A stretch of DNA of 64,000 nt from Candidatus Rokuibacteriota bacterium (GTDB taxonomy: Bacteria > Methylomirabilota > Methylomirabilia > Rokubacteriales > DASRDR01): positions 6,330-70,329 of the forward strand of contig JBIOTN010000175.1 in NCBI GenBank assembly GCA_044866005.1, given 5' to 3'. A model generated the notes under the pieces. That model made no database searches, was not told the DNA's origin, and saw nothing but the letters and a program-made list of their open reading frames with translations. Made by a program: the position numbers and the translations under genes. Shown here one piece after another: positions 8,066-56,131 of this stretch; the first letter of the stretch is position 1, and every line of letters begins with the position of its first letter.

Positions 8066-8076
8066 GAGCGGCAGAG

Positions 8077-8887: not shown

Positions 8888-8897
8888 GGGCAGGCGC

Positions 8898-21044: not shown

Positions 21045-23244
21045 GGCTCGGCTCCGGTAGGTCGGACCGTTCCGGCGCGCCGCCGCCCGGCGGCGCGCTC
21101 CGGGCGGCGGGGAGGAGGACCATGAAGGTCGTCCCGCGCCCCGGCTCGCTGGCGGCCTCGATCGCGCCGCCGTGCTCCTCGATGATGCGGCGCGTGATGG
21201 CGAGGCCCAGGCCAGTGCCGCGACGCTTGGTGGTGTAGTAGGGCTCGAAGATGACGCCGAGGTGGGAGCCCTCGATGCCGGTCCCCGTGTCCGCCACCGT
21301 GACCGCGACGTTGCCGCTCCGTGGCGCGGGCGTCGCGCCGAACGTGAGCCGGCCGCCGTGCGGCATCGCGTCGAGCGCGTTCAGCGCGAGGTTGAGCAAG
21401 GCTTGCTCCAGCAGCCGCGCGTCGAGCATCAGGCCGGGGAGCCCGGGCTCCGCCTCGACCCGGACCTCCACCGACCGCTGGCGCGCCCGCACGCGGACGA
21501 ACGCCGCGACCGCCTCGAGGATCGGCTCGATCCGCGCGGGCTGTGGCCGGAGCTCCAGGGGGCGCGAGAAGCTCAGGAGCCCCTCCAGCGACTCGTCCAT
21601 GTCGCGCACCTTCCGGTCCGCCGCGTCGAGGAGGGCGCGCTGCTCGTCCCCCACCGGGAGTCGGTCTCGCAGGTACTGGACCGTGGTCCCGATCACCGTG
21701 AGCGGGTTCCGGATCTCGTGCGCCAGGGCCGCGGCCAGTCGCCCGATCGTCGCGTACCGCTCGGCGCGCGCCAGCCGCACCTCCAGGCGCAGCCGCTCCT
21801 CGAGGCCGAAGGTCGTCGCGCGGAGCAGCCGCGCGTGGCGCACGGCGACCGCCAGCTGCTCGGCGATGGGACGCAGCAGGCGCAGGTCGCGACGCCGGAA
21901 GCGGCCCCGCGTCCGGCTGACCAGGGTGAGCGCGCCGACGCTCTCCCGCTCCACGACGAGCGGCACGGTGGTCAGCGAGCGCGCGCCGGGCAGCTCGCGG
22001 AGGAACGGCAGCACGGGGCGGCTCGACGTGGCGATGTCGGCGACGATCGCGGCGCGGCCGGTGCGCATGGCCTCACCGCTGACGGTCTCCCGGAACTCGG
22101 GCGACCACGGGAGCGTCCGTGGCGGCCGGCCGACCTCGCCCACCATCACCTGCCCGCCGTTCCCCTCCGCGTCCATCACCACGATCGCCGAGGCGTCGAA
22201 GGCCGTGATCCGCCGGATCTCCTGCGTGGCGACCCGGAAGATCTCCTCCAGCGACAGGCAGGCCGAGATCGCCTTGCCGATCCGCCGGGTCGCCCGCACC
22301 TGCCGGTTCCGCTCCCGGAGGTCGTCGCGCAGGCAGACGTTCACGATGGGGACCGTCGCGACGTCGGCCAGCTCCAGCAGCCGCTCCGCCAGCGGCTCGC
22401 CGAACGGCCGATCGCCATCGAGCCGCCCCACTGCCAAGAGGCCGACCAGCTCGTCGTCCTGGTGCAGCGGGATGAGGACGGCCGCGGAGACGGCGTCGTC
22501 CCGGAGGTACTCGCGCGGCACGGCGAGGGGGAAGGGCGGCGCGCAGAGGGCGGCGGCGCCCAGCAGCCGGTCGAGGTCGGTCGGCGGCAGCAGCGGCCGT
22601 GGGCCGCGCCGGCCGAGCACGCGGCGCGCCGCGCGCAGGGTCAGGTCCTCCCCGGGCCGCTCGCGCAGCCAGAGGCCGCCCACGTCCCCGTCGGTCAGCG
22701 TCACGGCGAGATCGAGGACCTGCTGACAGATCTCGTCGAGGTCGCGGCCCGGCTTGGCCAGCCGGAGCATCTGGCGGAAGTGGTTGACGTGGAGCTCGGC
22801 GTGGCGGGCGCGGCGCCGCGCCGCGTCGAGCTCCGCGACGACGGCGAGCGCGGGGCCGAGCACGGCCGCCCGCGCCCGCGTCTCCGCCGACACGCCGGCG
22901 CCCGGCCGGCCGAGCAGGAGGAGGACGCCCCGCGTCTCCTCGGCCGAGCCCACCGGGAACGCGACCGCCTCCGGCCACTCGGGGGTGAGCGGCGCATCGG
23001 GGACGAGGGCGGCCGCCGCCGGGGACCGGCTCGCCTGCCGGGCGAAGGCGACGACCGGCGCCTGCTGGAAGGGCTCCTCGGTCGGATGGGCGCCCACGAG
23101 ACGCACGTCCGCCTCGACGGCGAGGAAGAGCGCCCCGCCCTCGCCATGATCGAGGGCCGAGGCGAGGAGATCCCGCGTCACTCGAGCACCGGCACTCCCG
23201 AGGGCCTGGCGAAGGCCGTGAGCCAGGTCCAGGGGCCACGTCAT
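21016..23244 (-). CDS. GAF-domain sensor histidine kinase
   Basis: Several GAF-like modules, an HisKA H-box (LAAALAHEIRNPL) and HATPase_c (DTGTGI...GTGLGLAI). It overlaps the activator gene by 29 nt. Confidence 0.85.
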   Translation of the reverse strand: MTWPLDLAHGLRQALGSAGARVTRDLLASALDHGEGGALFLAVEADVRLVGAHPTEEPFQQAPVVAFARQASRSPAAAALVPDAPLTPEWPEAVAFPVGSAEETRGVLLLLGRPGAGVSAETRARAAVLGPALAVVAELDAARRRARHAELHVNHFRQMLRLAKPGRDLDEICQQVLDLAVTLTDGDVGGLWLRERPGEDLTLRAARRVLGRRGPRPLLPPTDLDRLLGAAALCAPPFPLAVPREYLRDDAVSAAVLIPLHQDDELVGLLAVGRLDGDRPFGEPLAERLLELADVATVPIVNVCLRDDLRERNRQVRATRRIGKAISACLSLEEIFRVATQEIRRITAFDASAIVVMDAEGNGGQVMVGEVGRPPRTLPWSPEFRETVSGEAMRTGRAAIVADIATSSRPVLPFLRELPGARSLTTVPLVVERESVGALTLVSRTRGRFRRRDLRLLRPIAEQLAVAVRHARLLRATTFGLEERLRLEVRLARAERYATIGRLAAALAHEIRNPLTVIGTTVQYLRDRLPVGDEQRALLDAADRKVRDMDESLEGLLSFSRPLELRPQPARIEPILEAVAAFVRVRARQRSVEVRVEAEPGLPGLMLDARLLEQALLNLALNALDAMPHGGRLTFGATPAPRSGNVAVTVADTGTGIEGSHLGVIFEPYYTTKRRGTGLGLAITRRIIEEHGGAIEAASEPGRGTTFMVLLPAARSAPPGGGAPERSDLPEPSHGPDTPAAG

Positions 23245-23296
23245 GCGGCTTTATTGTCTCACGCCGGCGCGGGCGAAGCACTCACCGGCGGCGGGG

Positions 23297-24850
23297 CTAG
23301 GGACGCGGCAGTTCGGAGGGAAGGGCGCCCACCGGGAGACCCAGGCGGCGCAGCAGGAAGGCCAGGAGCAAGCGGGCGTCGCGCCGCCGGCTCCGGGCGG
23401 CGGCATAGAGCCGGTCGAGGGCCAGGCGGTCCGCGGACCGCAGCGGCATCGGCGTCAGGTCCGCGAGCGTGACGAGGCCCGGCGGGGCGAGCGGCAGCTG
23501 GCCGCGCGCGGCGAGCAGGCCCCACTCCGACTCCGAGCGCGCCGCCGTGCCGACCCAGTGGAGGTCGCCCCGCACGACGTTCCAGAGGTGAGGCGCCCGC
23601 GCGAGGCCGAGACGACTGAGAAGGCGCCCGAGCCGGCCCCGGCTCGCCACGCGACGGAGCAGGGCGACGTCCCCGCGGGCGCCGACGACGCGCCGCCGGG
23701 TGAGCGGCCGGCCACCGCTCTCCACGGCCAGGCCCGCGAGCACCGGCAGCCACAGGGGCGCGGCGCCGGCGACGATCGCCATCGCCAGGAGCCGGCCCAT
23801 GAGGCTCCCCGGGTGCGGCCGGAGCGGAACGCGCGTGTCGCCGAGGATCCGCGGATCGCTCACCCGGGTCCAGCTGCCGGCGTGGGCGCGACCGAGCCGC
23901 TCGCGGTCGACGAGCGCGCCCTCCAGGGCGAGCCCACGCCCCACGTGCGTGCGGGGCAGCAGGACCGAGTGCCGCACGGTCGAGCCGCCGCCCACGATGA
24001 CGTCCTCGCCGACGACGCTCCGCTCGACGACCGCGCCGCGCCCGATCACCGCGTTCACGCCCACCAGGACCGGCGGCCGGACGGCGGCGCCCGGGTGGAC
24101 GAGGGCGCCGCGGGACAGGCGGACCCCCGGGCGGACTTCGAAGCCGGGCAGGACGAGTCCCGGCAGCTCGCCGCCGATCGCCATGTGGTTGGCAGCGAGG
24201 AGGTCGCCGGGCGTGCGAACGAGGCGCCCCGGGTCCGTCGTGACGTAGCCGCAGGTGGTGAGGCCGGCGGCCAGGAGGCGCGGCAACAGATCGTCGACCA
24301 GGTCGGCGGGCGTCGCCGGCGACAGCTCGGCGAGCGCCGCGGGGCTGACGAGGGCGAGCCCCGTCGTGGCGAAGCGCCCGCTCACGGGGCGCCGCGGCGG
24401 CGCCAGGCCCCCCTCGTCATCGACGTCCACGTCGCCGTCCTCGCCGTCGGCGGGGACCACGATCAGCGTGAGGACCGCGCCCCGCAGCTGGTGGAACGCG
24501 GCGGCCTTCGAGATGTCGGCGGTGGTCAGCGCGGTGCCCGCGGCCACCAGGAACGGCTCGCTCCACCGAGCGGCGACGCGACGGACCGCGCCGGCGGTGC
24601 CGAGCGGCGTCCGCTCCAGCGCGTACCGGAGCCGCAGGCCCCAGCGCGTGCCATCCCCGAGGCCGGCCTCGATGGGGTACGGGCAGTGGTGGAGGGCCAT
24701 CACCACCTCGCGGACGCGGTGCCGGACGAGGTGGTCGAGGAGGTGCTCGACGACCGGGCGGTTCGCCACCGGCAGCAGCGCGGCCGGCCAGTCGAGCGTG
24801 AGCGGGTGCAGGCGTGTCGCCGCGCCGCCGGCCAGGACGACCGCGTTCAC
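23297..24850 (-). CDS. sugar-1-phosphate nucleotidyltransferase + left-handed beta-helix + degenerate C-terminal bacterial-sugar-transferase (PHPT-like) domain fusion
   Basis: N-terminus MNAVVLAGGAATRLHPLT is the NTP-transferase G-rich loop. The middle is hexapeptide repeats. The C-terminus has a TM helix plus HLWNVVRGDLHWVGTAARSESEWG, which resembles the PHPT core ([21 protein letters not shown]) but lacks the DE dyad. Confidence 0.7.
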   Translation of the reverse strand: MNAVVLAGGAATRLHPLTLDWPAALLPVANRPVVEHLLDHLVRHRVREVVMALHHCPYPIEAGLGDGTRWGLRLRYALERTPLGTAGAVRRVAARWSEPFLVAAGTALTTADISKAAAFHQLRGAVLTLIVVPADGEDGDVDVDDEGGLAPPRRPVSGRFATTGLALVSPAALAELSPATPADLVDDLLPRLLAAGLTTCGYVTTDPGRLVRTPGDLLAANHMAIGGELPGLVLPGFEVRPGVRLSRGALVHPGAAVRPPVLVGVNAVIGRGAVVERSVVGEDVIVGGGSTVRHSVLLPRTHVGRGLALEGALVDRERLGRAHAGSWTRVSDPRILGDTRVPLRPHPGSLMGRLLAMAIVAGAAPLWLPVLAGLAVESGGRPLTRRRVVGARGDVALLRRVASRGRLGRLLSRLGLARAPHLWNVVRGDLHWVGTAARSESEWGLLAARGQLPLAPPGLVTLADLTPMPLRSADRLALDRLYAAARSRRRDARLLLAFLLRRLGLPVGALPSELPRP

Positions 24851-24869
24851 CGACGCCCCCCGGGGTCCC

Positions 24870-25178
24870 TCACGCGGCCCGGCTCGAGACGAGAGCGTCG
24901 GCCAGCGAGGTGAGGACCGGCATGAGGCTCGGCGAGGCGAGGATGCGGACCCGGCGCTCCCGCGCCAGCTGCCGGAGACCGCGCGAGAGGACCTCCAGCC
25001 CGAAGGCTTCGACGACGGTCAGTCCCGACAGGTCGAGCACGAGCTCGCGAGCCTGCGACGGCGTGCGGGCGAGCACGTCCAGCACGTGGCAGGCCGTCGA
25101 GCCGTCCACCGCGCCCTCCAGCGTCACCGTACATCGGTCCTGGCGCTGGCGGCGGCGCACTCGCAGGCGTGGCGCCAT
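24870..25178 (-). CDS. STAS-domain anti-sigma-factor antagonist
   Basis: MAPRLRVRRRQRQDRCTVTLEGAVDGSTACHVLDVL...LVLDLSGLTVVEAFGLEVL. Preceded by the RBS GGGAGG. Confidence 0.7.
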   Translation of the reverse strand: MAPRLRVRRRQRQDRCTVTLEGAVDGSTACHVLDVLARTPSQARELVLDLSGLTVVEAFGLEVLSRGLRQLARERRVRILASPSLMPVLTSLADALVSSRAA

Positions 25179-25191
25179 GCAATCCTCCCGG

Positions 25192-25623
25192 CTAGCTGGC
25201 GACCCGCCGCTCGAGCGGCGCGCGCGCCAGGCGGATCTTCCCCAGGTGCCGCTGCGGCGCATGGCCCGGCGCCGCCACCCCGCCGGCGGCGAGCGCCTCG
25301 ACGGCCGAGGCGACGTCGTCGCAGACGTCGAAGAGCAGGTGGAGCTGCATGATCTCCAGGACGAGTCTGACCTGCGAGGCCAGCCCCACGAGGCAGACAT
25401 CCCCGCCGCGGCGCTCGGCCTGCCGGAGCAGCGTGACCAGCGCGGCAAAGCCGCTGGAGTCCACCCGCCGCACGCCGCTCAGGTCGATGGCCACCCGCGG
25501 CACCCCGATCGGCGCCAGCATGAGTCTGACGCGGCGCAGGAAGGCCGGTGCGGTGGGGACCGTGAGCTCGCCCTCGACGGTCAGGACGGTCACGCTGCCG
25601 AGTTGCTTGGACGTCACCTGCAT
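25192..25623 (-). CDS. STAS-domain anti-sigma-factor antagonist (SpoIIAA-like)
   Basis: MQVTSKQLGSVTVLTVEGELT...IDLSGVRRVDSSGFAALVTL is the classic STAS fold signature. Confidence 0.8.
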   Translation of the reverse strand: MQVTSKQLGSVTVLTVEGELTVPTAPAFLRRVRLMLAPIGVPRVAIDLSGVRRVDSSGFAALVTLLRQAERRGGDVCLVGLASQVRLVLEIMQLHLLFDVCDDVASAVEALAAGGVAAPGHAPQRHLGKIRLARAPLERRVAS

Positions 25624-26095
25624 GGACCAGGCTCCTTCTCCCGACCTCGACCCCGCGATGCACGCGACGTGGGGGCGCTCACGACGCCGCGTGACCGGAG
25701 GTCGGTGCCGTGCCTGGCTCGCGCGCTCCTGATTCGCTCCATCCGTGCCACCGGGTCGTGCGCTCGAAAATGATGCCGACTGATGCCCCTTCCGAGGAGC
25801 AAGACGGATGCCGAGCCCCCGTGGGCCGTGGGGACGCCTCGCTGGAGCCTGCCCCGGCGCGCCGACGCCGGATCAGAGGCCATGATCGGCGACCCGGCCC
25901 CGCGGCGCCCGGGCCGAAAGGTTGCGGACGAGGCTGCAACATTTGCCGCCCCGCCGGCCTGGGATGGCACACGCATGGCGTGGCATTCGCCTTGCCCGCT
26001 CGGGATCGCGACGACCGCGACGTCGTGCGTCGGTCGCCACCCCGCGAGTCGTGTCGGGCGCACCTCGCGCCGCGCAGAGCCGGACGATCGAGCCG

Positions 26096-26830
26096 TCAGG
26101 ACGCCCCCTTCCCCGAGATCACCGCGGGAATCGTACGCAACAGGATCACGAGGTCCATGCCCAAGGTCTGACGCTCGATGTACTGGACGTCGAGTCGGAC
26201 CTGGCCCGGGAAGTCGATGGCGTTCCGGCCCATCACCTGCCAGAGGCAGGTGATGCCCGGCGTCGCCATGAGCCGCCGTCGGTCGGCGGGGTCGTACAGC
26301 GCGACCTCCGACGGGAGCGGCGGACGCGGGCCGACCAGCGACATCTCGCCCTGGAGGACGTTCAGGAGCTGTGGCAGCTCGTCCAGGGACAGCTTGCGAA
26401 TCACGCGGCCGACCCGCGTGATGCGGGGATCGTTCTTGATCTTGAAGAGGATCCCGTCCCGCATCTCGTTCTGCGCCATGAGGTCGGCCTTCAGCGCCTC
26501 GGCGTTCAGCACCATGGAGCGGAACTTGTACATCACGAACAGGCGGCCGTCCTTGCCCACCCGAACCTGGTGGAAGAGGATCGGCCCGCCGTCCTCCAGC
26601 TTGATCCCGAGGGCGATGGCGAGCCAGATCGGCGCGGCGATCACGAGGAGCACGAGCCCGCCGAGGAGGTCCACGGCCCGCTTGAGGCGGGGCGTGGTCC
26701 CGACCCGCACGCGCCACAGGAGCCGGCCGACCGCGATGACGAAGAGGTCGCGGCGGCGCGCCCAGCCGACGCCGCCGCGGGCGAGACGCCGGTGAGTTTG
26801 ACGGAGGAGGCGGGCGCGCTCGGCCGTCAC
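26096..26830 (-). CDS. polyprenyl-phosphate hexose-1-phosphate transferase (bacterial sugar transferase, priming PHPT)
   Basis: [25 protein letters not shown]...[21 protein letters not shown]...[23 protein letters not shown] carries the reentrant helix plus the DE dyad and PRP motif. The GTG start is tentative. Confidence 0.8.
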   Translation of the reverse strand: [244 protein letters not shown]

Positions 26831-26867
26831 GCCAGACCCCCAACGGCGCTGCGTCCCCGGCCCGCGG

Positions 26868-28082
26868 TCATGCCGCTTTCTCCGTCGCCGGCACCCGCTT
26901 CCGCGGCGTGGGCACCCACTCCCGCGAGGCCCCGCCCAGGACCAGGGCGCAGTACCAGACCTTGGCGACCGCGTAGACCGGCCCGTACACGAACAGCGCG
27001 GCATAGGCGCGCGCCGGCACGCGAGCGAGCGCGCACCCGGTGAAGACGTAAAAGGCCTGCGCCGCGAGCAGGCCGGCCCAGATCACCGCCGGCGCGACGG
27101 GGCCGCCAGCGAGCCACGAGAGGCCGTGGAGCATCGCCGGGCCGGCGGTCCCGGCCGCGAGCAAGGCGAAGGGCGGCGTCGCCAGGTCCAGCATCAGGTC
27201 GAGATAGGGCACGCGCGCCCGGCCCGTCCGGGCCGTCGCGGCGCGGAGCAGCGGCACGAGGGCTCGCCGCGCCAGGGCGAACCGACCGCCCTCCCAGCGC
27301 AGCTCCTGGCTCCGCGCCGTCTTCATGGTCGGCTCCATGACCGTCTCGACCACGGCCCGGGGCACGAACACCGAGCGGATCCCGTGGAAGACGAGCCGGA
27401 GGTGGTACTCCTGGTCCTCCGCCACCGAGGCCGTCTCCCAGGGGACCTCCCGCAGCACTGCCCGGGTGAGGCAGATGCCGTTCCCCTGGAGGCCGGCCGA
27501 AGCGCCCAGCGCCTGCCGTCCCGCAGGACGCAGGTAGTGGATGAGCGCCATGTCCGCCGCCATCAGCGCGGTCCGCCAGCTCTCGTCGGCATTGCCAACG
27601 GCGCAGTACGCTTGCACGACCCGCGCTCCGGCCTGAAGGGCCAGATCCAGCTCGGTGAGCAGATCCGGCGCGGGGCGCGAGTCGGCGTCGAGGATGACGA
27701 ACGCGTCGTGACGGCGCTCGGGAAGCAGTCGCGCGAAGGCCCAGCCGAGCGCGGCGCCCTTGCTGCGGCGCGTGGGATCGCGGCGCTGGAGGACCCGCGC
27801 CCCGTGGGCCAGCGCGACCACCGCGGTGCCGTCGTCGCAGTTGTCGGCGACGACGATGACCTCGTAGCGTGGACGGGGATAGTCGAGCGCGTCGAGCGCG
27901 GCGAGCAGCTCAGGCAGCATCGCCGCCTCGTTGTGCGCGGGGACCACCACGGCGAACCGGTGGCGCGGCGCGCGCGGCGCCCGGCGCGCCGGGCGGGCGA
28001 CCGCCGCCGCGCCCGCCACCAGGGCCAGGTAGCCCGTGAAGACGGCGGCCAGCGCGATCAGCGGGAGCTCAGCGAGCCACAT
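26868..28082 (-). CDS. GT2 membrane glycosyltransferase
   Basis: FAVVVPAHNEAAMLPE...VIVVADNCDDGT...ILDADS, with C-terminal TM helices. Confidence 0.85.
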   Translation of the reverse strand: MWLAELPLIALAAVFTGYLALVAGAAAVARPARRAPRAPRHRFAVVVPAHNEAAMLPELLAALDALDYPRPRYEVIVVADNCDDGTAVVALAHGARVLQRRDPTRRSKGAALGWAFARLLPERRHDAFVILDADSRPAPDLLTELDLALQAGARVVQAYCAVGNADESWRTALMAADMALIHYLRPAGRQALGASAGLQGNGICLTRAVLREVPWETASVAEDQEYHLRLVFHGIRSVFVPRAVVETVMEPTMKTARSQELRWEGGRFALARRALVPLLRAATARTGRARVPYLDLMLDLATPPFALLAAGTAGPAMLHGLSWLAGGPVAPAVIWAGLLAAQAFYVFTGCALARVPARAYAALFVYGPVYAVAKVWYCALVLGGASREWVPTPRKRVPATEKAA

Positions 28083-28090
28083 GGGTGCCC

Positions 28091-30331
28091 TCAGGCGCTC
28101 TCGCGTCGGCCATCGTGCGCGTAATAGCCGTAGTTGGCGTAGAAGTACCGGTTACGGGAGAGCCGCACGTCGTTGAGCACGACGCCGAGGATCCGGGCCC
28201 CCAGGGCCTCGAGGCGGTCCCGCGCGATCTGGACGGCCTCCACCGGCGTGGCGTGGGCGCGGACCACCAGGAGCACGCCGTCCACGAGCGACGCCAGCAC
28301 GGAGGCGTCCGAGACGGCCAGGACGGGCGGGGAGTCGATGATGATCCAGGGGAACCGTTGCCGGAGCGTTCCCAGCAGGGTGCGCGCGCGCTCCGAGGAG
28401 AGCAGCGCGGCCGGATCGGGCGGCTTCGGCCCCGCCGGCAGGAACGTGAGGTTCGCGATCCCCGTCGTCACGAGCGCGACATCATGCGGCAGCCCGCGGT
28501 AGAGGAGCGAGGAGAGCCCCACCCGCGGGGACTCGATCCCGAACGCGCGATGACAGGCCGAGCGGCGGAAGTCCGCGTCGATCAGCAAGACCGTCTCGCC
28601 GCCTTCGGCGAGCGCGACCGCGAGGTTCACCGCGCTGAACGACTTGCCCTCCTGGGGCTGGGCGCTCGTCACCAGGATCGTGCGCGGCGTGTCGAAGGCG
28701 CGGCTGTGCAACACCAGCGCGCGGATCGATCGGAACGCCTCGCCGGCGATCTGCGCCGGCCAGGACAGCGCGTCCTCCGGAACCGCGCGCGTCGGCAGGT
28801 CCTCGAGCGCCGGGAGCGACTGGCGCGTATAGCTGCGCACCGACGGGACGGTGCCGAGGTTCGGCAAGCGGACGAGCAGATCGACCTCGCGCGGCGTCCG
28901 CAGCGTCTGATCGCCCGCCTCCCGGAAGAACGCGAGGGCGGCGCCGCCGATCAGGCCGGCGATGGTGGCGAGCAGCAAATCGCGGGTCTTCTTCGGGCTG
29001 GCGGGCCGGAGCGGCGCCCGGGCCGGGTCGGCGATCTTCACGTTCGTCACGCGGAGCTGGGCGGCGAGCTGCAGCTCCTTCAGCCGCTTCATCAGCTCGG
29101 CGTACACGGACTCGGTCGCGTCCGATTCCTTCTTGAGGAGCTGGAGCTGCATCTGCCGGGCGTGCTGGCTGATCGCCTCGCGCCGCTGGGAATCGAGCCG
29201 CCGGCCCAGCTCCGCCGCGCGGCGCGTCGCCGCCTGGTATTCCTGCTGGACCGCGTCCTTCGCCTTCTTGGTCTCGGTGTCGAGCCGGAGCTTCGCCAGC
29301 GAGAGCTCCGCCTCCAGCTCGATCATCTTGGGATGCTGCGGCCCGTACACCGTCTTGGCCCGCGCCAGCTCGCGCTCCAGCCGGGTGTACTCGCCCTTGA
29401 GGTTCCGGACGAGCTCGCTTCCCAGGGCGGCCGCCAGCGTCTCGGGGTCGGCGGAGGCGAGCATCCGGTAGCGCGCCTCCTTCTGGATACGGTCGCTCTC
29501 CGCCTCGGTGTAGGCGCGGTTCTGGTCGTCGAGCTGCTGGAGGACGAACTCCGTCTTGCCCTCGCGCGTCGGCACCAGGTTGTTCTTCTCGACGAACTGC
29601 TGGATGACGCCGCTCGCCTCCTGCGTGCGGGCGCGCAGACCGCCGAGCTGGTCCTCCAGCCACCGGCTGGCCGCCTCCGACGCCTCCCGCCGCTGGGCGT
29701 TCGTCATGGCGATGTACTCGCTGGCGATCGCGTTGGGAATGGCCGCCGCCAGGTCCCGGTCGGGGACGCGCGCGCTGATCCGCACGAGCCGGCTCCGCTT
29801 GACGGGCTCGATCTTGATGTCCTGCTCCAGGCCCTCGATGAACTCGTCCATGCCCGCCGACGGCTTCGGCGCGGCGGGACGCAGGCCCACCAGCCGGGCG
29901 GCGAAGGCGAAGACCTGTTCCCGCCGGCTCTGGCCCGGGGCGAAGGCGGGATGACGGGGAAGGTCGAGCCGCTCGGCCATCCGGGCGAGGAGCGTCCGGC
30001 TCCCCAGCAACTCGAACTGCGTCTGGTAGTAGGCGTCGAACACCCGCTCGTTCGCCGATTCCTCGTTCGGAGAGAGCTCCTGGAACGCGACCACGCGCGG
30101 CCGCTCGGGATCGATCTGGATCACGGCCGCGGCCTCGTAGAGCGGCCGCGTGGTGAAGCTCCACGTCGCGACCAGGCCCATCACGGCCGCGGTGAAGCCG
30201 AGAATCAGCCAGCGGCGGCCGACGAGGATGTCCCAGATGCTGCGCGCGGGCCGCTCGCCCTCGATGCGGACCACCTCGAGCTCGCGGTCGCCCGGCAGCG
30301 CGGACATCGGCCGGTGCGGGATCTCTCGCAT
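28091..30331 (-). CDS. polysaccharide co-polymerase / tyrosine autokinase (Wzc/EpsV-like PCP-2a)
   Basis: Wzz-like TM plus a long coiled-coil periplasmic domain, then a C-terminal P-loop kinase (SAQPQEGKSFSAVNLA, Walker A; DADFRRS; C-terminal YANYGYYAHD tyrosine cluster). Confidence 0.9.
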   Translation of the reverse strand: MREIPHRPMSALPGDRELEVVRIEGERPARSIWDILVGRRWLILGFTAAVMGLVATWSFTTRPLYEAAAVIQIDPERPRVVAFQELSPNEESANERVFDAYYQTQFELLGSRTLLARMAERLDLPRHPAFAPGQSRREQVFAFAARLVGLRPAAPKPSAGMDEFIEGLEQDIKIEPVKRSRLVRISARVPDRDLAAAIPNAIASEYIAMTNAQRREASEAASRWLEDQLGGLRARTQEASGVIQQFVEKNNLVPTREGKTEFVLQQLDDQNRAYTEAESDRIQKEARYRMLASADPETLAAALGSELVRNLKGEYTRLERELARAKTVYGPQHPKMIELEAELSLAKLRLDTETKKAKDAVQQEYQAATRRAAELGRRLDSQRREAISQHARQMQLQLLKKESDATESVYAELMKRLKELQLAAQLRVTNVKIADPARAPLRPASPKKTRDLLLATIAGLIGGAALAFFREAGDQTLRTPREVDLLVRLPNLGTVPSVRSYTRQSLPALEDLPTRAVPEDALSWPAQIAGEAFRSIRALVLHSRAFDTPRTILVTSAQPQEGKSFSAVNLAVALAEGGETVLLIDADFRRSACHRAFGIESPRVGLSSLLYRGLPHDVALVTTGIANLTFLPAGPKPPDPAALLSSERARTLLGTLRQRFPWIIIDSPPVLAVSDASVLASLVDGVLLVVRAHATPVEAVQIARDRLEALGARILGVVLNDVRLSRNRYFYANYGYYAHDGRRESA

Positions 30332-30353
30332 CAGACGCTCCTTGCGGTGTCGC

Positions 30354-31403
30354 TCACGGTGAAATCCCGATGCTGAAGATGCCTTTGAAGAAGTCGAGGA
30401 CGCCGTAGGCCGCCGTCTTGGCGCCGCTCGCCGGGACCACGACGACGTCCTGCGCCTGGAGCGCGACGTCCTGGCTCCGGTCGCCGGCCATGACGGCCTT
30501 GAGGTCGATCCCCCCGATCTCCTTCTTCTCCCCGGTCGGCAGCGTCCGAACGATCTTGATCTCCCGGGTCGCCGCCCGGTTGGTCACGCCGCCGGCCTCG
30601 GTGATCGCCTTGGAGATCGTGGTGTCGCGGCGCAGCGTGTAGGCCCCGCGCTTCTCCACCTCGCCCGCGACGTAGTAGGTGTTCGCCTCCGGGACGTAGA
30701 CGGAGTCTCCCGGCTCGAGCACGACGTTCTGGCGCGGGTCGCCGCTCCGCAGCAGCGCTTCGAGGTCCACGGTGACCGGCTGGGGCTCGCCCTGCCGCGG
30801 CTTCGCGCGGAGCACGTAGGCGACCCGGTCGGCGTTTTCCTTGACGCCCTTGGCCTCGGACATGGCGAGGAGCACGGTCGTGGAGTTGCTCTTCAGCGCG
30901 TACGATCCCGGCTGGTTGACCGCGCCCATGACCGCGACCTGCCGGCCCTGGAACTCCGTCACGCTGACGGTCACCTTCGGGTTGAGGAGGTAGCGGCCGC
31001 GAAGGCCGGACTCGAGCTTCTCCTCGACTTCCTTCGGAGACAGGCCCACGACGGGGACCTCGCCCAGGAGCGGAAGCGTGATCGTCCCCGTCTCGCTCAC
31101 GCGGACGGTGCGGCTGAGGTCCTCCTGCCCGTAGACGTGGATCGCCAGCTGGTCCTTGGGCGCGACCTTGTAGTCGCCCTCGGGAGCGGTGGCCGGCGTC
31201 GGCGGAGGCTGGAGCGAGACCGGCGGGGGCGCGAGCGTCGGGCCGCCCGGCGGCGTCACCGCGCCCGACGGCGTCGCCGCTCGCCCGGTCGCGGGGCTCG
31301 ACGCCGCCGGCCGGGCTCCCTCGGCGGGAGCCTTCGAGGCAGTGGCGCAGCCGCTGCCCGCGATCAAACTGCCGATCAGAGCGAACACAATCCCATGCCG
31401 CAT
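30354..31403 (-). CDS. outer-membrane polysaccharide export lipoprotein (Wza/OPX family)
   Basis: MRHGIVFALIGSLIAGSGC lipobox, Pro/Ala-rich linker, PES and SLBB-like motifs (YKVAPKDQLAIHVYG, VAVMGAVNQPGSYAL). ATG 31403 follows the RBS GAGGGG. Confidence 0.85.
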   Translation of the reverse strand: MRHGIVFALIGSLIAGSGCATASKAPAEGARPAASSPATGRAATPSGAVTPPGGPTLAPPPVSLQPPPTPATAPEGDYKVAPKDQLAIHVYGQEDLSRTVRVSETGTITLPLLGEVPVVGLSPKEVEEKLESGLRGRYLLNPKVTVSVTEFQGRQVAVMGAVNQPGSYALKSNSTTVLLAMSEAKGVKENADRVAYVLRAKPRQGEPQPVTVDLEALLRSGDPRQNVVLEPGDSVYVPEANTYYVAGEVEKRGAYTLRRDTTISKAITEAGGVTNRAATREIKIVRTLPTGEKKEIGGIDLKAVMAGDRSQDVALQAQDVVVVPASGAKTAAYGVLDFFKGIFSIGISP

Positions 31404-31430: not shown

Positions 31431-31446
31431 AGCAAGGGATGTGCCA
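31431..31446 (-). promoter_or_regulatory. sigma-54 (-24/-12) promoter driving wza-wzc-GT2-PHPT
   Basis: Minus-strand sequence TGGCACatcccTTGCT matches TGGCAC-N5-TTGCW exactly. The predicted TSS near 31420 leaves a 17-nt leader containing GAGGGG before ATG 31403. Confidence 0.6.
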
Positions 31447-31682
31447 GGGAGGGGGGCACTTCCCGGGACCCTTCGCGGAAGCGTCCCCGCTCCACGGTCC
31501 GATCGCGGGTCCGGACATCTGAGGTCCGGCCCCGGACTGGGCCGCTGCCGGTTGTGGCCCTGCATATCCCCGGCCGGCGGAGCGCGCGACCCAAAGTTGC
31601 CCACGTCAGTGCAACAATTTCCGGGGGCGGGCGGGGCGCGTGGCCGATGACCGGCCGAGGCGACGGAAGCGGAGCGGTCCAC

Positions 31683-31698
31683 TGGCACGCCCATTGCT
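31683..31698 (+). promoter_or_regulatory. sigma-54 (-24/-12) promoter driving wzy-RR-wzx-deacetylase
   Basis: TGGCACgcccaTTGCT, with GG and GC at the canonical 10-nt spacing, about 20 nt upstream of ATG 31718. Confidence 0.6.
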
Positions 31699-31717
31699 GC
31701 CTCCGGAGAAACGAGCC

Positions 31718-33193
31718 ATGCGCGCCGTGGCGTCGTTCTCCCGGGTCCGCCCCGAAGAAGCCCTGCTCGTCGGCCTCACCGCCCTCGCCCTGGTGGCCGG
31801 GCTCACGGTCGGCGCCGAGACGCCGCTCGCCTACCTCGTCCTGGCGGTCCCCGTCGTCGCCGGCCTGGCGATGTGGCGGCCGGTCTACGGCCTCGCCCTC
31901 CTGCTCGGGGCGGTCCTCTTCTCCGAGCAGTACACGATCGAGACACTCGCGGGCGACATCAAGCCCTTCCTGCTCCAGAACCTGCCGATCTTCGAGAGCC
32001 TCGACCGCTTCACCCCGGTGCCGGTCAAGACGAACGTCGTCGAGCTCTGGCTCATCGGCCTGACCGTCATCTGGGCCGTCAAGGCGATCGCCGCCCACCG
32101 GTTCCAGCTCCGCCCCGTCCCGTGCACCGTCGCCTGGATGCTCGCCGGCATCACCCTCGCCGTCACGTTCGTGCGGGGGATGTCGAGCGGCGGCGACCTG
32201 AGCGCGGCGATCGTGGAGGTCCGAGCGCTCGGCTACCTGATCGGGCTCACCTGGCTCGTCCCGCAGATCGTCGAGCACCGGCGCGACGTCGGGCTGCTCG
32301 TCGGGGTGATGGTGATCGCGCTCGCCGCCAAAGCGGTACAGGGCCTCTACCGGTACTTCGTCATCCTCGGCATGCACCTCGACCTGACCCAGACGTTTCT
32401 GGCGCACGAGGATCCCGTGATGTTCGTGCCGCTCTTCTACCTCATGATCGCGCTCTGGGGCGCGTCGACGGAGCTCCGGCTCCGGCGCCTGCTGCAGGTC
32501 AGCACGCCGATCATGTTCGCCGCGCTGGTGCTGACGCAGCGGCGCATCGCCTACATCACGCTCTGCCTGTGCGCGGTCTTCTTCGCCTTCATCCTCGCGC
32601 CGGCCGCCCGCCGGACGTTCCTGCGCGTGACCGTGCCGATCGCGCTCGCCGGGGCGGCTTACGCCGTGGCGTTCGCGGGCTCCTCCTCGCCGCTGGCGCA
32701 GCCCATCGACCGCGCGCTCACCCTCTTCGACCCGACGAACCGGTCGAACCTCTACCGGCTGATCGAGCTGGAGAACCTCCGCTACACGATCCAGCTCCAC
32801 CCGTGGGGCATCGGCTTCGGTCAGCGGTACGAGATTCTCCGGTCGCTGCCCAAGCTCGATTGGGCGCTCTACGAGTACATCCCGCACAACGAGATCCTGT
32901 GGATCTGGGTCAAGGCCGGCTGGATCGGCTTCATCCTCGTGATGTTCTTCTTCGCCCGCGTCGTGATCGAGGCGGTGTGGACCTACCGGCGGCTTCGCGA
33001 TCCGCTCCTGTCCGCGGTGGCGGCCGTCGTCGGGATCGCCGTCGTGAACCAGCTCTTCGCCTCGTACTACGAGCTCCAGCTGACGTACGGGCGGAACATG
33101 ATCTACCTCGGCACGCTGATCGGACTCCTCGGACCGATCCAGGCATGGGGCGGCCTGCGGCCGCCGCCGTCGCTCTGGCGCTGGCGTCTGTAA
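31718..33193 (+). CDS. O-antigen ligase / Wzy-like polysaccharide polymerase
   Basis: About 11 TM helices and the Wzy_C-type loop (YIPHNEILWIWVKAGWIGFILVMFF). ATG follows GGAGAAA. Confidence 0.8.
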   Translation: MRAVASFSRVRPEEALLVGLTALALVAGLTVGAETPLAYLVLAVPVVAGLAMWRPVYGLALLLGAVLFSEQYTIETLAGDIKPFLLQNLPIFESLDRFTPVPVKTNVVELWLIGLTVIWAVKAIAAHRFQLRPVPCTVAWMLAGITLAVTFVRGMSSGGDLSAAIVEVRALGYLIGLTWLVPQIVEHRRDVGLLVGVMVIALAAKAVQGLYRYFVILGMHLDLTQTFLAHEDPVMFVPLFYLMIALWGASTELRLRRLLQVSTPIMFAALVLTQRRIAYITLCLCAVFFAFILAPAARRTFLRVTVPIALAGAAYAVAFAGSSSPLAQPIDRALTLFDPTNRSNLYRLIELENLRYTIQLHPWGIGFGQRYEILRSLPKLDWALYEYIPHNEILWIWVKAGWIGFILVMFFFARVVIEAVWTYRRLRDPLLSAVAAVVGIAVVNQLFASYYELQLTYGRNMIYLGTLIGLLGPIQAWGGLRPPPSLWRWRL

Positions 33194-33205
33194 AGGGGAA
33201 ACAGG

Positions 33206-33619
33206 ATGAAGGGGGCCGGAGGGCGGCCGCCGGCGATCCTCGTCGCCGACGACGACGTGGCGATCACCGCGACGTTCGAGAACATCCTCCGGAGCGAGGG
33301 GTACGACGTCGCCACGGCGAGCGACGGGCTGGAGGCGGTCGAGCTGGCGCGGGCGCGTCGGTTCGACCTGATCCTGCTGGACCTCATCATGCCGCGCCAG
33401 GACGGCCTGGCCGCGCTCCGCGAGATCCGCGCCGTCGCGCCGGACAGCCGGGTGGTGATCCTCTCCGCCTACATCGAGCCGGATCGGGAGGCGGAGGCCT
33501 ATCGGCTCGGCGCCGTGGGCGTGCTCGCGAAGCCGCCCGACCTCAAGAAGCTGCTCCGGTTCATCGACGAGCTGACACGCGCCGAGCAGCCAGGCCCCAG
33601 CTCGGGAGCACCCCGATGA
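33206..33619 (+). CDS. single-domain response regulator (CheY-like receiver)
   Basis: ILVADDD...DLILLDLIMP...AKP, 137 aa with no output domain. Confidence 0.85.
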   Translation: MKGAGGRPPAILVADDDVAITATFENILRSEGYDVATASDGLEAVELARARRFDLILLDLIMPRQDGLAALREIRAVAPDSRVVILSAYIEPDREAEAYRLGAVGVLAKPPDLKKLLRFIDELTRAEQPGPSSGAPR

Positions 33620-33635
33620 GCCTTCACGTCGGCCC

Positions 33636-35114
33636 ATGGACCCGCTGAGCAGCATCCTGCGCAACTCCTCCCTCCTCGCCGCGGCTCAGGCGGTGTCGAG
33701 CCTGATCGGGATGGCGCTGGTCGTACTGCTGCCGCGCTTCCTGGGCGACGCGGAGTTCGGCCGCCTCCACCTCGCGCTCTCGCTCACGGGGATGTTCAGC
33801 GTGGCCGTGCAGTTCGGCCTCACCAGCGTGGTGGCGCGGGCGGTGGCGCGTCAGCGGACGCTGGCGCGTCCCTACTTCCGGAGCGCGACGGCCCTGATCA
33901 CGGCGCTGGGCGCGGTGACGTACGTGGTGCTCCTCGCCCTGGTCCGCATCCTGGGCTACCCCGTGCACATCCACGAGCTGGCCGCGATCCTCGGGATCGT
34001 GATGGTCGCCGACGCGCTGTCCGAGACGCTCAGCGCGCTCTTCCTGGCGCACGAGCGGATGCTCGTGCCGGCCGCGGCCCGGATCGTCGGCAACGCTTTC
34101 ACGCTCGCCGTCGCCGTGCCGCTCCTCGCCCACGGCTACGGCGCGCGGGCCGTGGCCACGGTCATGGTGACGGCGGCGGGGCTCCGGCTCATGATCCAGG
34201 CCGCCTCGCTCCGGCGCCTCGACGGCTTCCGGGGCACCGACGCGCCGCCGGCCGGATCCTGGCGCGAGCTCCTCGCGGCGGGCTTTCCGTTCCTCGTGTG
34301 GGAAGCCCTCGGGATCCTCTACTTCCGGATCGACGTCCTGATGCTCGGCCTGATGACCACCGACGCGACCGTCGGCTGGTACGGCGCGGCCTCCCGGCTC
34401 CTCGACGCGCTCGGGTTCGTCCCGCACATCCTGACGGTGGCGACCTTCCCGGTCGCGGCCCGTCTCTGGGTGACCGCCCCCGACGAGTTCCGCGCGATCG
34501 TGCGGAAGGCGCTCCAGCTCATGCTCGTCGTCACGGTCCCCGTGGCGGTCCTCCTCCTGACGCTCGCGCGGGACATCGTGGGGTTCCTCTTCACGCTGGA
34601 GTCGTTCGGGCCGTCGGTCCCCATCCTGAGAATCCACGCGCTGACGCTCGCGGTGCTCTTCATCAACTTCTTCCTGGTCGGGGTGCTCATGGCGATCGGC
34701 CGCGAGCGGGCCTGGATCGCGGTGGCCGGGCTGGCGTGCCTCCTGAACCCCGCCATGAACCTGGTGCTGATCCCCCTGACCGACGCGCGGTTCGCCAACG
34801 GCGGCATCGGCGCGGCGATCGCCACGCTGCTCACCGAGCTGTTCGTCCTGGCCTGCGCCGTGGCGCTCTATCCGGCCGGCACGCTGGGCCGCGCCTCGTG
34901 GCGGATCGCGGCGCAGGCGGCCGGGTCCGGCGCCCTCATGGGGGCGCTCGTCCTGGGGAGTCGCGCGCTGGACCTCCCGTGGATGCTGGCCGCGGTCGTG
35001 GGCGGGCTCGGCTATCTCCTCGCGGTCGTCCGGCTCGGCATCGTGCCCGAGGCCGTCACCGGCCTCGTGCGACGGGGCGCGGCGCGACGCTCCCCGGCGG
35101 AGCTGGTGTCGTGA
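33636..35114 (+). CDS. Wzx-type polysaccharide flippase (MOP superfamily)
   Basis: 492 aa, 12-14 TM helices. N-terminal LLAAAQAVSSLIGMALVVLLPRFLG is typical of polysaccharide biosynthesis proteins. Confidence 0.85.
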   Translation: MDPLSSILRNSSLLAAAQAVSSLIGMALVVLLPRFLGDAEFGRLHLALSLTGMFSVAVQFGLTSVVARAVARQRTLARPYFRSATALITALGAVTYVVLLALVRILGYPVHIHELAAILGIVMVADALSETLSALFLAHERMLVPAAARIVGNAFTLAVAVPLLAHGYGARAVATVMVTAAGLRLMIQAASLRRLDGFRGTDAPPAGSWRELLAAGFPFLVWEALGILYFRIDVLMLGLMTTDATVGWYGAASRLLDALGFVPHILTVATFPVAARLWVTAPDEFRAIVRKALQLMLVVTVPVAVLLLTLARDIVGFLFTLESFGPSVPILRIHALTLAVLFINFFLVGVLMAIGRERAWIAVAGLACLLNPAMNLVLIPLTDARFANGGIGAAIATLLTELFVLACAVALYPAGTLGRASWRIAAQAAGSGALMGALVLGSRALDLPWMLAAVVGGLGYLLAVVRLGIVPEAVTGLVRRGAARRSPAELVS

Positions 35115-35190
35115 GGGCCGCCGGCACCCCCGCGAGCGTGCCCGCCGCCCGGGACGGCCGGACAGGCGCCTCGCCGCCCCGGACCCGCCG

Positions 35191-35973
35191 GTGACGACGC
35201 CCGGCCGCGCCACGCTCGCTTCGTCCCCGGAGCGGAGCCGACGGCGAAAGGCCTCGCTCGGTCAACCGCCCGTCTTCATGTACCACGGCCTCACGCCCCG
35301 GACGGGCAGCCATCCGGGAAGCCTCGCCGTCTCGCGGTTCCGCGCCCAGCTCGCCGCGCTGCGGACGCTGGGCTACCGGTCGATCCGACCCGGCACGCTC
35401 GCCGCGGCCCTCCGCGGCGAGGCCCCGTTGCCCTCAGGCTCGGTCGTGCTCACCTTCGACGACGGCTACCTCGATACGCTCACCGAGGCGCTGCCGCTCC
35501 TCCTGGAGTTCGGCTTCACGGCGACCTGCTACGTGGTGGCGGGCGCCGTCGGCGGCGTCTGCCATTGGACCGACCCGGCGCCGCTCATGGGCTGGGACCA
35601 CCTGCGGAGCTGGCTTGCCGCCGGCATGGAGATCGGGGCCCACTCGGTGAGCCACCGCGACCTCACCCGGCTCGACACCGCGGCGCTCCGGGAGGAGGTC
35701 GAGGGCGCGAAGGCGCGCCTGGAGGACCGGCTCGGGGAAGCGATCCCCACGTTCGCCTATCCTTTCAACCGTGTCGACCGCCGTGCCATGGCGGGAGTCG
35801 AGGCGGCCGGCTACGCGTCGGCCTGCGCCGGCGTGGAGGTCCGCCACTCGCCCTACGCGCTCTCCCGCGTGGACGTCGCCCACGACTCCTGGGCGTGGTT
35901 CGGGCTTCAGCTCCTCCCCGTCTACCACGAGCTTCACGGCGCCTACCGCGCCCTGGTCCCGCGGCGCCGCTGA
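35191..35973 (+). CDS. polysaccharide deacetylase (CE4 / NodB homology)
   Basis: VVLTFDDGY...EIGAHSVSHRDL...PFN. GTG start, with ATG 35278 as the alternative. Confidence 0.8.
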   Translation: MTTPGRATLASSPERSRRRKASLGQPPVFMYHGLTPRTGSHPGSLAVSRFRAQLAALRTLGYRSIRPGTLAAALRGEAPLPSGSVVLTFDDGYLDTLTEALPLLLEFGFTATCYVVAGAVGGVCHWTDPAPLMGWDHLRSWLAAGMEIGAHSVSHRDLTRLDTAALREEVEGAKARLEDRLGEAIPTFAYPFNRVDRRAMAGVEAAGYASACAGVEVRHSPYALSRVDVAHDSWAWFGLQLLPVYHELHGAYRALVPRRR

Positions 35974-39153: not shown

Positions 39154-39158
39154 GGGGC

Positions 39159-39350
39159 TCAGCGCGAGCCCATGAGGAGGCTGCGCAGCTGGTCGAACGG
39201 ACCTCCCGAGGTGCCGTGCCAGCTCAGGAACTCGCCGGCGACGGCGGCCCCGATGAGGAAGATCAGGAGGAGCTGGACCACGGGCGTGATGCGGCGGACG
39301 ACCTTCCCGATCACCAGCGCCGCGGCGAGGATCACCAGAAGCGCGGTCAT
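39159..39350 (-). CDS. small 2-TM membrane protein (63 aa), hypothetical
   Basis: MTALLVILAAALVIGKVVRRITPVVQLLLIFLIGAAVAGEF... is hydrophobic and not low-complexity. The GC3 bias is consistent with coding. It ends 6 nt before the GT4 start. Confidence 0.5.
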   Translation of the reverse strand: MTALLVILAAALVIGKVVRRITPVVQLLLIFLIGAAVAGEFLSWHGTSGGPFDQLRSLLMGSR

Positions 39351-39362
39351 GCCCCGGGACAG

Positions 39363-39378
39363 AGCAATTGTCTTGCCA
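39363..39378 (-). promoter_or_regulatory. sigma-54-like promoter (TGGCAA-N5-TTGCT) upstream of the small-TM/GT4/GH9 operon
   Basis: Minus-strand sequence TGGCAAgacaaTTGCT. The predicted TSS is near 39352, which is 2 nt from ATG 39350, so the transcript would be leaderless. Confidence 0.4.
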
Positions 39379-39615
39379 GGGCCCCGGGCCCCGCGGCGAC
39401 GGGACGGCCGTCCGACCCCCGCGGGAAGGCGTGGGCGCCCCGGACCCGGCCGCGCCCGCCTCGCCCCGACCTGGGCGCCCGCCGGATGAAATAGTTGCCG
39501 GGGCTCGGGAAAAAGTTGGCCCGGGCGGACCGTCCACGGCTCGTCGCTCCCCCGACCGGTACGCCGTGACGCCGTGTTTCTCTCATGGTATCCCGTTTGC
39601 TGGAAGCCAGACAGG

Positions 39616-55810: not shown

Positions 55811-56131
55811 GTGGAGCAAACGACGTTCCAGGCCCGCCTCGCTGCCTGCCGGGGCGTCCCCTCCGACGCCCTTCCTACACACCGACGATCACCCTCGCGC
55901 AGCCTGCCTGCGGGAGCGACCGACACCACGGTGCGGCTCAATCGGGTGCACGACAACGCCCTGGGCGGGATCCAGGTCGGCGAGGGCGGCACCGGAAACC
56001 TCTTGCAAGCCAATCGGGCGCGCCAGAACGGCGTGTACGATCTGGCGGACTTCCCACCCGGCCCCTGCGCTCTCAACACATGGAAGGCCAACCGCGGCAC
56101 ACATCTCCTGGATGGCTGCGAGACGGGCTGA
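55811..56131 (+). pseudogene. possible C-terminal fragment of a right-handed beta-helix repeat protein
   Basis: VRLNRVHDNALGGIQVGEGGTGNLLQANRARQNGVYDLAD looks like pectate-lyase-type beta-helix rungs. There is no credible N-terminus or RBS. Confidence 0.25.

Follow-up and report, generated by a model that had tools for sequence, protein, structure and literature searches.

The window analyzed here is a stretch of 64,000 nucleotides of Candidatus Rokuibacteriota DNA (contig JBIOTN010000175.1) that carries an exopolysaccharide (EPS) locus, and our subject is the 314-bp spacer from which the two arms of this locus diverge, with an element of the sigma-54 -24/-12 type facing each arm. The minus arm, wza-wzc-GT2-PHPT, spans 26096..31403 with gaps of 8-37 nt, and the plus arm, wzy-response regulator-wzx-deacetylase, spans 31718..35973 with gaps of 12-76 nt. 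The gene calls, backed by Pfam, are as follows.

30354-31403, minus strand: wza (Poly_export and SLBB)
28091-30331, minus strand: wzc, PCP/BY-kinase (Wzz, GNVR and P-loop)
26868-28082, minus strand: GT2
26096-27004 as the longest open reading frame (ORF), minus strand: PHPT (Bac_transf), likely start about 26830
31718-33193, plus strand: wzy (Wzy_C protein)
33206-33619, plus strand: single-domain response regulator
33636-35114, plus strand: wzx (Polysacc_synt)
35191-35973, plus strand: polysaccharide deacetylase

PHPT, Wzx, Wzy, Wzc and Wza are all present among the Pfam assignments, which places the locus in the Wzx/Wzy-dependent pathway.

Two outward-facing -24/-12 elements in the wza/wzy spacer

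Both arms are preceded by an exact match to the consensus TGGCAC-N5-TTGCW.

31446..31431, minus strand: P_wza, sigma-54-type -24/-12 element, TGGCACATCCCTTGCT = TGGCACatcccTTGCT, 19.8 bits
31683..31698, plus strand: P_wzy, sigma-54-type -24/-12 element, TGGCACGCCCATTGCT = TGGCACgcccaTTGCT, 19.3 bits

The two elements are intergenic and face outward, and in each the distance between GG and GC is exactly 10 nt. They are the only exact matches on either strand of the window, where 0.01 were expected, and none of 100 dinucleotide shuffles reached two. When two mismatches were allowed, the window held 35 matches against 37 expected; an excess of exact matches combined with a two-mismatch count at expectation indicates that the sigma-54 signal resides in the exact matches. 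The initial annotation had read the same two sites in a 314-bp spacer between wza and a wzy-like gene, and had proposed a weight-matrix scan as a check. All of these readings were borne out, and in a scan with a sigma-54 matrix of approximate weights of our own the two elements took the first and second rank in the window. The maximum score across 30 random 64-kb sequences was 17.8, and an exact calculation for independent, identically distributed letters gives 0.019 sites of at least 19 bits per window. Five sites scored at least 16.8 bits, against 0.065 expected, and at a threshold of 14 bits there were seven, where about 1 was expected. Each of the seven lies between genes, although the non-genic share of the window is at most 18%.

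Short motifs do arise by chance, and the two-mismatch count is what chance would give, so we asked of these numbers whether the sites could be compositional matches without function in GC-rich intergenic DNA (GC content is 73.8% in the window and 74% in the spacer). This explanation is effectively refuted by the exact matches and by the retention of the site positions across loci whose Wzy proteins are 53-66% identical and whose spacers have diverged. An Rfam search over 19-41 kb matched no family, so the spacers are not explained by a riboswitch or known RNA.

Taking the canonical start as 12 nt past the -12 C, the wza transcript is predicted to begin at about 31420 (-12 C at 31432, 28 nt from the ATG at 31403) and to carry the 17-nt leader opening with GAGGGG that had been proposed at first. 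On the other side, the -12 C at 31697 lies 20 nt from the wzy ATG at 31718. This agrees with the spacing given earlier, but the start predicted at about 31709 would leave a leader of only ~9 nt, a consequence that had passed unremarked. Such a leader is too short for a Shine-Dalgarno sequence, and the GGAG at 31705-31708 sits just 5' of the predicted transcript start.

Conservation of the elements and a recurring enhancer-like block

A scan of genome contigs with Wza found one true relative (L001) and one distant match. A metagenome scan with a two-sequence Wza alignment returned no relatives, and the scan repeated with a 43-sequence Wzy alignment yielded them. DNA was examined for the Methylomirabilota/Rokuibacteriota loci L001, L003-L011 and L013-L022, and for L045-L047, which were reached through the activator described below. 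L001, the closest genome match, is a Candidatus Methylomirabilota metagenome-assembled genome whose Wza is 75% identical; other homologues are named in their sources as Methylomirabilota or Candidatus Rokuibacteriota. Wzy orthologues at 53-66% identity are numerous, and gene order is kept with some rearrangements.

When the window spacer is aligned with that of L001, solid blocks are confined to the pair of -24/-12 elements, the start codons and a central AT-rich block. A sigma-54-type site precedes wza in all ten loci that cover the region (window, L001, L003, L005, L007, L011, L021, L022, L046 and L047), and 14 loci have one immediately 5' of wzy (window, L001, L003, L005, L007, L009, L011, L013-L016, L022, L046 and L047). 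In L009 and L014 wzy comes after GH9 in the same orientation, yet the short spacer preceding wzy still keeps the site, and in L021 a weaker site precedes the small ORF that leads into wzy. We observed no site directly before wzy in L010, L018 and L019, where the gene is operon-internal, and none in any of the 16 scanned loci with only distant (30-34%) Wzy homologues.

The central block recurs, both within the window and in the relatives.

31590..31622, plus strand: enhancer-like block of ~33 bp, CCCAAAGTTGCC-cacgtcag-TGCAACAATTTCC, containing GTTGC-N10-GCAAC
25915..25947, plus strand: second block copy, CGAAAGGTTGC-ggacgaggc-TGCAACATTTGCC, in the 470-bp PHPT/STAS spacer
39520..39487, minus strand: third block copy, GCCAACTTTTTCC-cgagcccc-GGCAACTATTTCA, between the sites P_sORF and P_HK2 listed below

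The initial annotation had pointed to GTTGC-N10-GCAAC at 31596..31615 as a weak candidate for an upstream activator site. The repeat is present, one of two in the window where 0.14 were expected, and it forms the inner halves of the block at 31590-31622; as the core of a conserved and recurring element, it appears a strong candidate and not a weak one. Alignment resolves the block into two ~13-bp units, each loosely GGCAA-N3-TTGCC and ~21 bp apart centre to centre, a layout that suits two NtrC-family dimers on one helix face. The block centre lies at about -103 from the predicted wzy start and about -186 from the predicted wza start, within the 70-200 bp range for a candidate upstream activator site.

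The block is conserved in L001, L003, L011, L015, L016, L022, L046 and L047; in the first six of these it stops 50-67 nt short of the wzy -24 element. The third copy has counterparts in L003 (13488) and L009 (4551). A regular expression for the right-hand unit gave 15 matches in 255 kb, against ~0.1 expected; nine of them had defined the expression and six were new. Four of the six adjoin sigma-54-type sites (at the L003 small ORF, the L009 kinase and the L011 GT4 gene, and as a mirror-strand match in the L011 wzy block), and the other two lie inside wzy coding sequence. Extra block matches were found in L046 and L047, loci reached independently through the activator. By local alignment the wza/wzy and PHPT/STAS spacers have only the ~33-bp block in common, and nothing rose above the shuffled range with the small ORF/kinase spacer; a recent duplication of control regions was therefore rejected. 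The response-regulator gene that follows wzy shows a parallel distribution: gene and block are both present in the window, L001, L003, L009, L011, L014, L015 and L016 and both absent from L005, L007, L017-L019 and L021, and L010 has the gene without the block.

The linked activator, further sites and a proposed regulon

A third gene unit, 19602..25623 on the minus strand, lies beyond the PHPT gene and includes the candidate activator (Pfam assignments for STAS, kinase and activator).

25192-25623, minus strand: STAS
24847-25182, minus strand: STAS-like ORF
23297-24850, minus strand: NTP-transferase
21016-23244, minus strand: GAF histidine kinase
19602-21044, minus strand: NtrC-type sigma-54 activator with GAFTGA

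Pfam identified a receiver, Sigma54_activat (PF00158, 8.8e-71) and HTH_8 in the product of 19602..21044, and the Walker A motif GESGTGKE and an intact GAFTGA were read directly, upholding the earlier assignment of an NtrC-family activator accompanied by a GAF histidine kinase. The protein falls below the NCBIfam cut-offs for AtoC, NtrC, PrsR, ZraR and LuxO and is placed in no equivalog; with every score under its cut-off, membership of the PrsR/PEP-CTERM, AtoC, NtrC and ZraR equivalogs was rejected. Its orthologue group is sharply bounded, with members at 70-92% identity and the next proteins at no more than 52%, and it is much better conserved than Wzy. A second activator type, ~43-45% identical to that of the window, occurs in L018 (3214-4599), L019 (710-2095), L009 (748-2205) and L010 (4204-5628), members of a sub-lineage of lower GC in which its gene is embedded 5' of the small ORF and wzy.

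Three orthologues (L045-L047), picked solely for the extent of their surrounding sequence, all end a wza arm. The order of this arm is wza-wzc-(GT2)-PHPT-(WecG)-STAS-STAS2-NTP-transferase-kinase-activator, tightly packed, and in L045, L046, L047 and L011 the STAS-to-activator genes follow PHPT without a large gap. L046 carries both promoters and the block, and L047 carries the block, P_wza and P_wzy. The linkage is also found in L009, L010 and L011 and in the gene lists of the P0012 and P0019 contigs. Because the activator ends the wza arm, P_wza probably drives the kinase and activator genes too, which suggests positive feedback on the activator.

The remaining high-scoring sites of the window, and the genes at the second spacer, are the following.

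39378..39363, minus strand: P_sORF, TGGCAAgacaaTTGCT, 18.0 bits, -12 C 13 nt ahead of ATG 39350
39586..39601, plus strand: P_HK2, TGGTATcccgtTTGCT, TGGTAT-N5-TTGCT, 16.8 bits, -12 C 15 nt ahead of ATG 39616
25813..25798, minus strand: candidate STAS-to-activator promoter, CGGCATccgtcTTGCT, 14.2 bits, intergenic, ~175 nt before the STAS ATG
25981..25996, plus strand: orphan sigma-54-like site, TGGCATtcgccTTGCC, 15.3 bits, 33 nt past the second block copy
55830..55815, minus strand: site TGGAACgtcgtTTGCT, 17.5 bits, followed by AGGAGG and ATG
39159-39350, minus strand: small ORF (63 aa, membrane), heading GT4-GH9
37909-39153, minus strand: GT4 from its likely start at 39153 (longest frame 37909-39537)
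36230-38287, minus strand: GH9, in the small ORF-GT4-GH9 unit
39616-40665, plus strand: second kinase gene, histidine-kinase-like, with an ATGATC start at 39616 (longest frame 39574-40665)

P_sORF and P_HK2 form a second divergent pair around a block copy (39350-39616). The former is conserved in L003, L005, L007 and L021, and the latter in L003, L009 and L014, each with an ATGATC start. The site at 25813..25798 may tentatively be assigned to the STAS-to-activator unit on its matrix score and position, without comparative support.

Taken together, these observations make it likely that the wza/wzy spacer acts in both directions as an enhancer-dependent control region and that the cluster is one sigma-54 regulon with positive feedback. 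Enhancer-dependent control of both arms, as the initial annotation had predicted, is supported by the site statistics, by their orientation, by their conservation amid diverged spacers and by a GAFTGA activator linked across the clade. In the mechanism we propose, sigma-54 RNA polymerase would wait in closed complexes on both outward-facing -24/-12 elements. The activator (19602-21044), phosphorylated by the adjacent GAF histidine kinase, would bind the two-unit block at 31590-31622, oligomerise, loop the DNA and spend ATP to open both promoters, so that export and initiation (wza-wzc-GT2-PHPT) would be switched on together with polymerisation, flipping and modification (wzy-RR-wzx-deacetylase, RR being the response regulator). 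The module of promoter and block would be reused in the small ORF-GT4-GH9/kinase spacer and probably also before the STAS-to-activator unit. Control would thus be predicted to reach the small ORF-GT4-GH9 unit, the second kinase gene and, possibly, the unit running from STAS to the kinase and activator.

Several observations weigh against this interpretation. No rpoN gene was found, and no Sigma54 domain protein was detected by Pfam among the window genes scanned; the gene is presumably present in the genome, because several GAFTGA-type activators occur in related contigs. In the 9-kb contigs of L018 and L019, no strong sigma-54 site was found. A stack of 28 anchored sites holds information only in TGGCA[CT] and (C)TTGCT, with spacer and flanks at ~0 bits, and this sharp profile is partly there by construction, since the sites of the relatives were found with a matrix from the same consensus. 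Independent of this profile is the presence of such a site in each orthologous spacer, the chance of one of at least 17.3 bits in a 300-bp spacer being ~2e-4. The plus-strand sites at 25965-25996 (TGGCACacgcaTGGC followed by TGGCATtcgccTTGCC) misfit the model: the orphan site at 25981..25996 points antisense into the 3' end of PHPT, no plus-strand gene follows it, and no counterpart was seen in the relatives. The tandem sites may act as a decoy or as a promoter of antisense transcription, or may be relics. A leader of 9 nt without a Shine-Dalgarno sequence is unusual for a sigma-54 gene, and the start site or the start codon could lie elsewhere. Furthermore, both promoters are retained in L005 and L007 across a gap of just 87 bp, yet these loci lack the block and the response-regulator gene and show no activator within 10 kb; the block and the linked activator are therefore not universal partners of these promoters. 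The block could also bind another protein.

The last two points bear on an alternative in which the sites are real sigma-54 promoters and the block binds another factor (a different activator, some other regulator or an IHF-like bender), and the activator linked to the locus acts elsewhere or from solution. Sites of bending proteins are often AT-rich, and the block is the sole AT-rich patch in the 74% GC spacer. The retention of promoters in L005 and L007 and the presence of an orthologous activator in L010, which has no match to the block expression, fit this alternative as well. It is nevertheless unlikely. Two dyad-like units ~21 bp apart, centred near -100, are the classic layout of NtrC-family dimer sites, and block and activator orthologue co-occur wherever contigs extend far enough (window, L009, L011, L046 and L047). 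As judged by eye, the block fits the IHF consensus WATCAANNNNTTR poorly, and IHF as the block binder was kept only within this broader alternative.

The compact variant of the spacer in L005 (9868-9984) and L007 (9877-9983) has a common AT-rich sequence, GTATCATCCATCC / GTATTCATTCACCC, just upstream of the wzy -24 element. Further sigma-54-type sites in relatives were seen in L010 at 1755 (plus strand), 3823 (minus strand) and 3930 (plus strand) and in L009 at 700 (plus strand), preceding an LPG-synthase gene, a diacylglycerol-kinase-like gene, an unassigned ATGATC start and a gene for the second activator (43-45% identical). In the window, the site at 55815-55830 precedes an unrelated gene for a 73-aa Gly-zipper (YMGG-like) lipoprotein (55563-55784, minus strand); it has no block nearby and is, on that basis, probably the target of a different activator.

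The small ORF, of 60-64 aa, is a membrane protein gene with the motif GK.ARRITP.VEL and no Pfam match, and it always heads GT4-GH9 or directly precedes wzy. Copies lie at 39159-39350 (minus strand) in the window, 13211-13393 in L003, 16919-17167 in L005, 16924-17118 in L007, 4564-4758 in L009 and 6884-7072 in L010. The window copy is concealed in the upstream extension of the longest GT4 frame (37909-39537), and the call in L005 (16919-17167, minus strand) reads across the sigma-54 site of the ORF itself. For PHPT, GT4 and the second kinase in the window, the start given by the longest ORF likewise lies too far upstream, the likely starts being ~26830, 39153 and 39616. Downstream of the locus, an AddB-like PD-(D/E)XK nuclease (42714-46031) and a UvrD-type helicase (46034-49246, plus strand) form an AddAB-type pair, and a homologue flanks the locus in L003 too. 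Upstream of the activator, two large divergent F5/8 type C (discoidin) proteins (5306-8623, minus strand, and 8886-11651, plus strand) lie beside GT2, GDSL-lipase and LPG-synthase genes and may mark a second cell-surface gene neighbourhood.

Predicted short leaders, known systems and significance

Comparison of the loci separates the genes behind these sites into two classes by how far the start codon lies from the -12 C.

wzy, 13 of 14 loci (all but L013): 14-20 nt, no conserved Shine-Dalgarno sequence
small ORF, 5 loci: 13-15 nt, no conserved Shine-Dalgarno sequence
kinase gene, 4 loci: 15-17 nt, no conserved Shine-Dalgarno sequence
wza, 6 loci: 24-28 nt, GGAGG

The exceptions at wza are L007, with 16 nt, and L005, with 24 nt (15 nt to an earlier ATG) and no clear GGAGG. 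The ATG of the L010 LPG-synthase gene lies 15 nt past the -12 C. Orthologues agree in their N-termini: among the 43 aligned Wzy proteins, most start MR..., and the small-ORF proteins start at a Met just past the promoter. If the starts are canonical, the wzy, small ORF and kinase transcripts would carry leaders of ~2-9 nt with no Shine-Dalgarno sequence. We therefore put forward, tentatively and at slightly less than even confidence, that the clade has a subset of sigma-54 promoters (those of wzy, the 63-aa membrane ORF, the kinase and, in one relative, the LPG-synthase gene) that yield leaderless or near-leaderless (~2-9 nt) mRNAs. No report of sigma-54-driven leaderless mRNAs was found in the literature searched (leaderless with sigma-54 or RpoN).

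The same short distances would also suit a different arrangement, in which sigma-54 holoenzyme binds, the main promoters are of the sigma-70 or extracytoplasmic-function type, and the sigma-54 closed complexes act as roadblocks, modulate or are non-productive: a -12 element only 13-20 nt from the wzy, small ORF and kinase start codons could occlude a transcript initiated upstream. Widespread non-canonical binding of sigma-54 in E. coli, described in an excerpt of PMC4591121, counts in its favor. We regard this arrangement as highly improbable. Apart from the exceptions already named, the sites always face a gene and always occur together with a linked activator or a block of the enhancer type, they follow wzy through rearrangements of gene order, and the wza spacing leaves a normal leader with GGAGG. 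A scan of 25-40 kb for the sigma-70 consensus found 0 sites against 0.2 expected, a result that is uninformative for an uncultured phylum.

Enhancer-dependent control of the kind proposed here has precedents, and a role of sigma-54 in controlling the cell exterior and exopolysaccharide is well established (PMC3162934). In Vibrio fischeri, SypG, encoded in the syp locus, activates all four syp operons with sigma-54 (PMC10162802, which cites Yip 2005 and Ray 2013), and SypA of the same locus is a STAS protein (PMC4517449); a syp enhancer is named in the literature on this locus. The window resembles syp in having a multi-operon polysaccharide locus with a locus-encoded response-regulator activator, an embedded STAS protein and extra kinases and receivers. 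The syp enhancer is reportedly, in work of Ray from 2013, repeated before each operon. Unlike in syp, the promoters here are divergent pairs sharing one block, three of them 13-20 nt from a start codon; the phylum is another, and the proteins are not orthologous, the activator scoring 343 bits against the cut-off of 800 for LuxO, the nearest Vibrio model in NCBIfam. No SypG model was among the NCBIfam matches of the activator, and the likeness is one of regulatory layout only.

The zraP and zraSR genes of E. coli and Salmonella are transcribed from divergent sigma-54 promoters under ZraR, which thus autoregulates its own operon (PMC4987338). The parallel lies in two back-to-back sigma-54 promoters in one spacer and in an activator that, as proposed here, also drives its own operon; the difference is that ZraR governs an envelope-stress chaperone, and the window activator reaches 390 bits where the ZraR cut-off is 760. 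The ZraR binding-site sequence is, we take it, unrelated to the block.

The initial annotation had likened the locus to Myxococcus xanthus eps, where EpsI/Nla24 is an NtrC-like protein needed for EPS and a cyclic di-GMP (c-di-GMP) receptor (PMC4877007). As a functional parallel this stands: both are Wzx/Wzy-type EPS loci encoding their own NtrC-like activator. It does not extend to orthology, with scores far under the NCBIfam cut-offs for Wzy_EPS (70 against 670 bits), EpsZ (258 against 800) and EpsY (99 against 320), nor to a sigma-54 type of promoter, since PMC4877007 describes no -24/-12 promoters or enhancer for eps. The sensor also differs, being a GAF histidine kinase here.

The bep cluster of Burkholderia cenocepacia depends on RpoN and the c-di-GMP effector BerB, according to an excerpt of PMC5552954; as far as that excerpt goes, it is likewise an exopolysaccharide cluster needing sigma-54 and an enhancer-binding protein, and it differs in gene content and phylum. 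In PEP-CTERM/exosortase EPS systems, PrsK/PrsR were linked by phylogenetic profile to an activator site and a -24/-12 motif (PMC1569441). The window shares with them a two-part upstream DNA signature with an NtrC-type regulator and a kinase near EPS genes, but there the motif precedes single PEP-CTERM protein genes and not biosynthesis operons. The activator scores 429 against 502.6 bits for PrsR (TIGR02915) and the kinase 86 against 300 bits for PrsK (TIGR02916), Wza and Wzc likewise fall below the cut-offs of the XrtA/PEP-CTERM models in NCBIfam, and no exosortase or PEP-CTERM family match was found among the annotated window proteins. Sigma-54 control of polysaccharide genes and divergent sigma-54 pairs are thus already known (PMC3162934, PMC10162802, PMC5552954, PMC4987338); the unusual features of the window are only the short-leader geometry and the orphan antisense-facing site.

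Gene regulation has hardly been studied in the uncultured soil bacteria of the Methylomirabilota/Rokuibacteriota, and our literature search found no paper tying Rokubacteria to sigma-54. The analysis yields a complete cis-regulatory model of a conserved cluster for surface polysaccharide, in which the predicted promoters and enhancer motif are joined by a candidate activator, a candidate kinase and a proposed feedback loop, and this model could be rebuilt in E. coli without growing the source organism. Annotation gains as well: several gene-caller starts overrun a promoter, and the starts of the small ORF, the real GT4, the kinase and PHPT had been mis-called or missed. The signature of promoter plus block offers a handle for finding more regulon members in metagenomes. 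If the leaderless subset is real, one regulon would contain two translation-initiation classes, wza and other sigma-54 genes keeping 24-33 nt and GGAGG, and the short-leader geometry, once confirmed, would mean that sigma-54 transcription is coupled, unusually, to translation that does not depend on a Shine-Dalgarno sequence.

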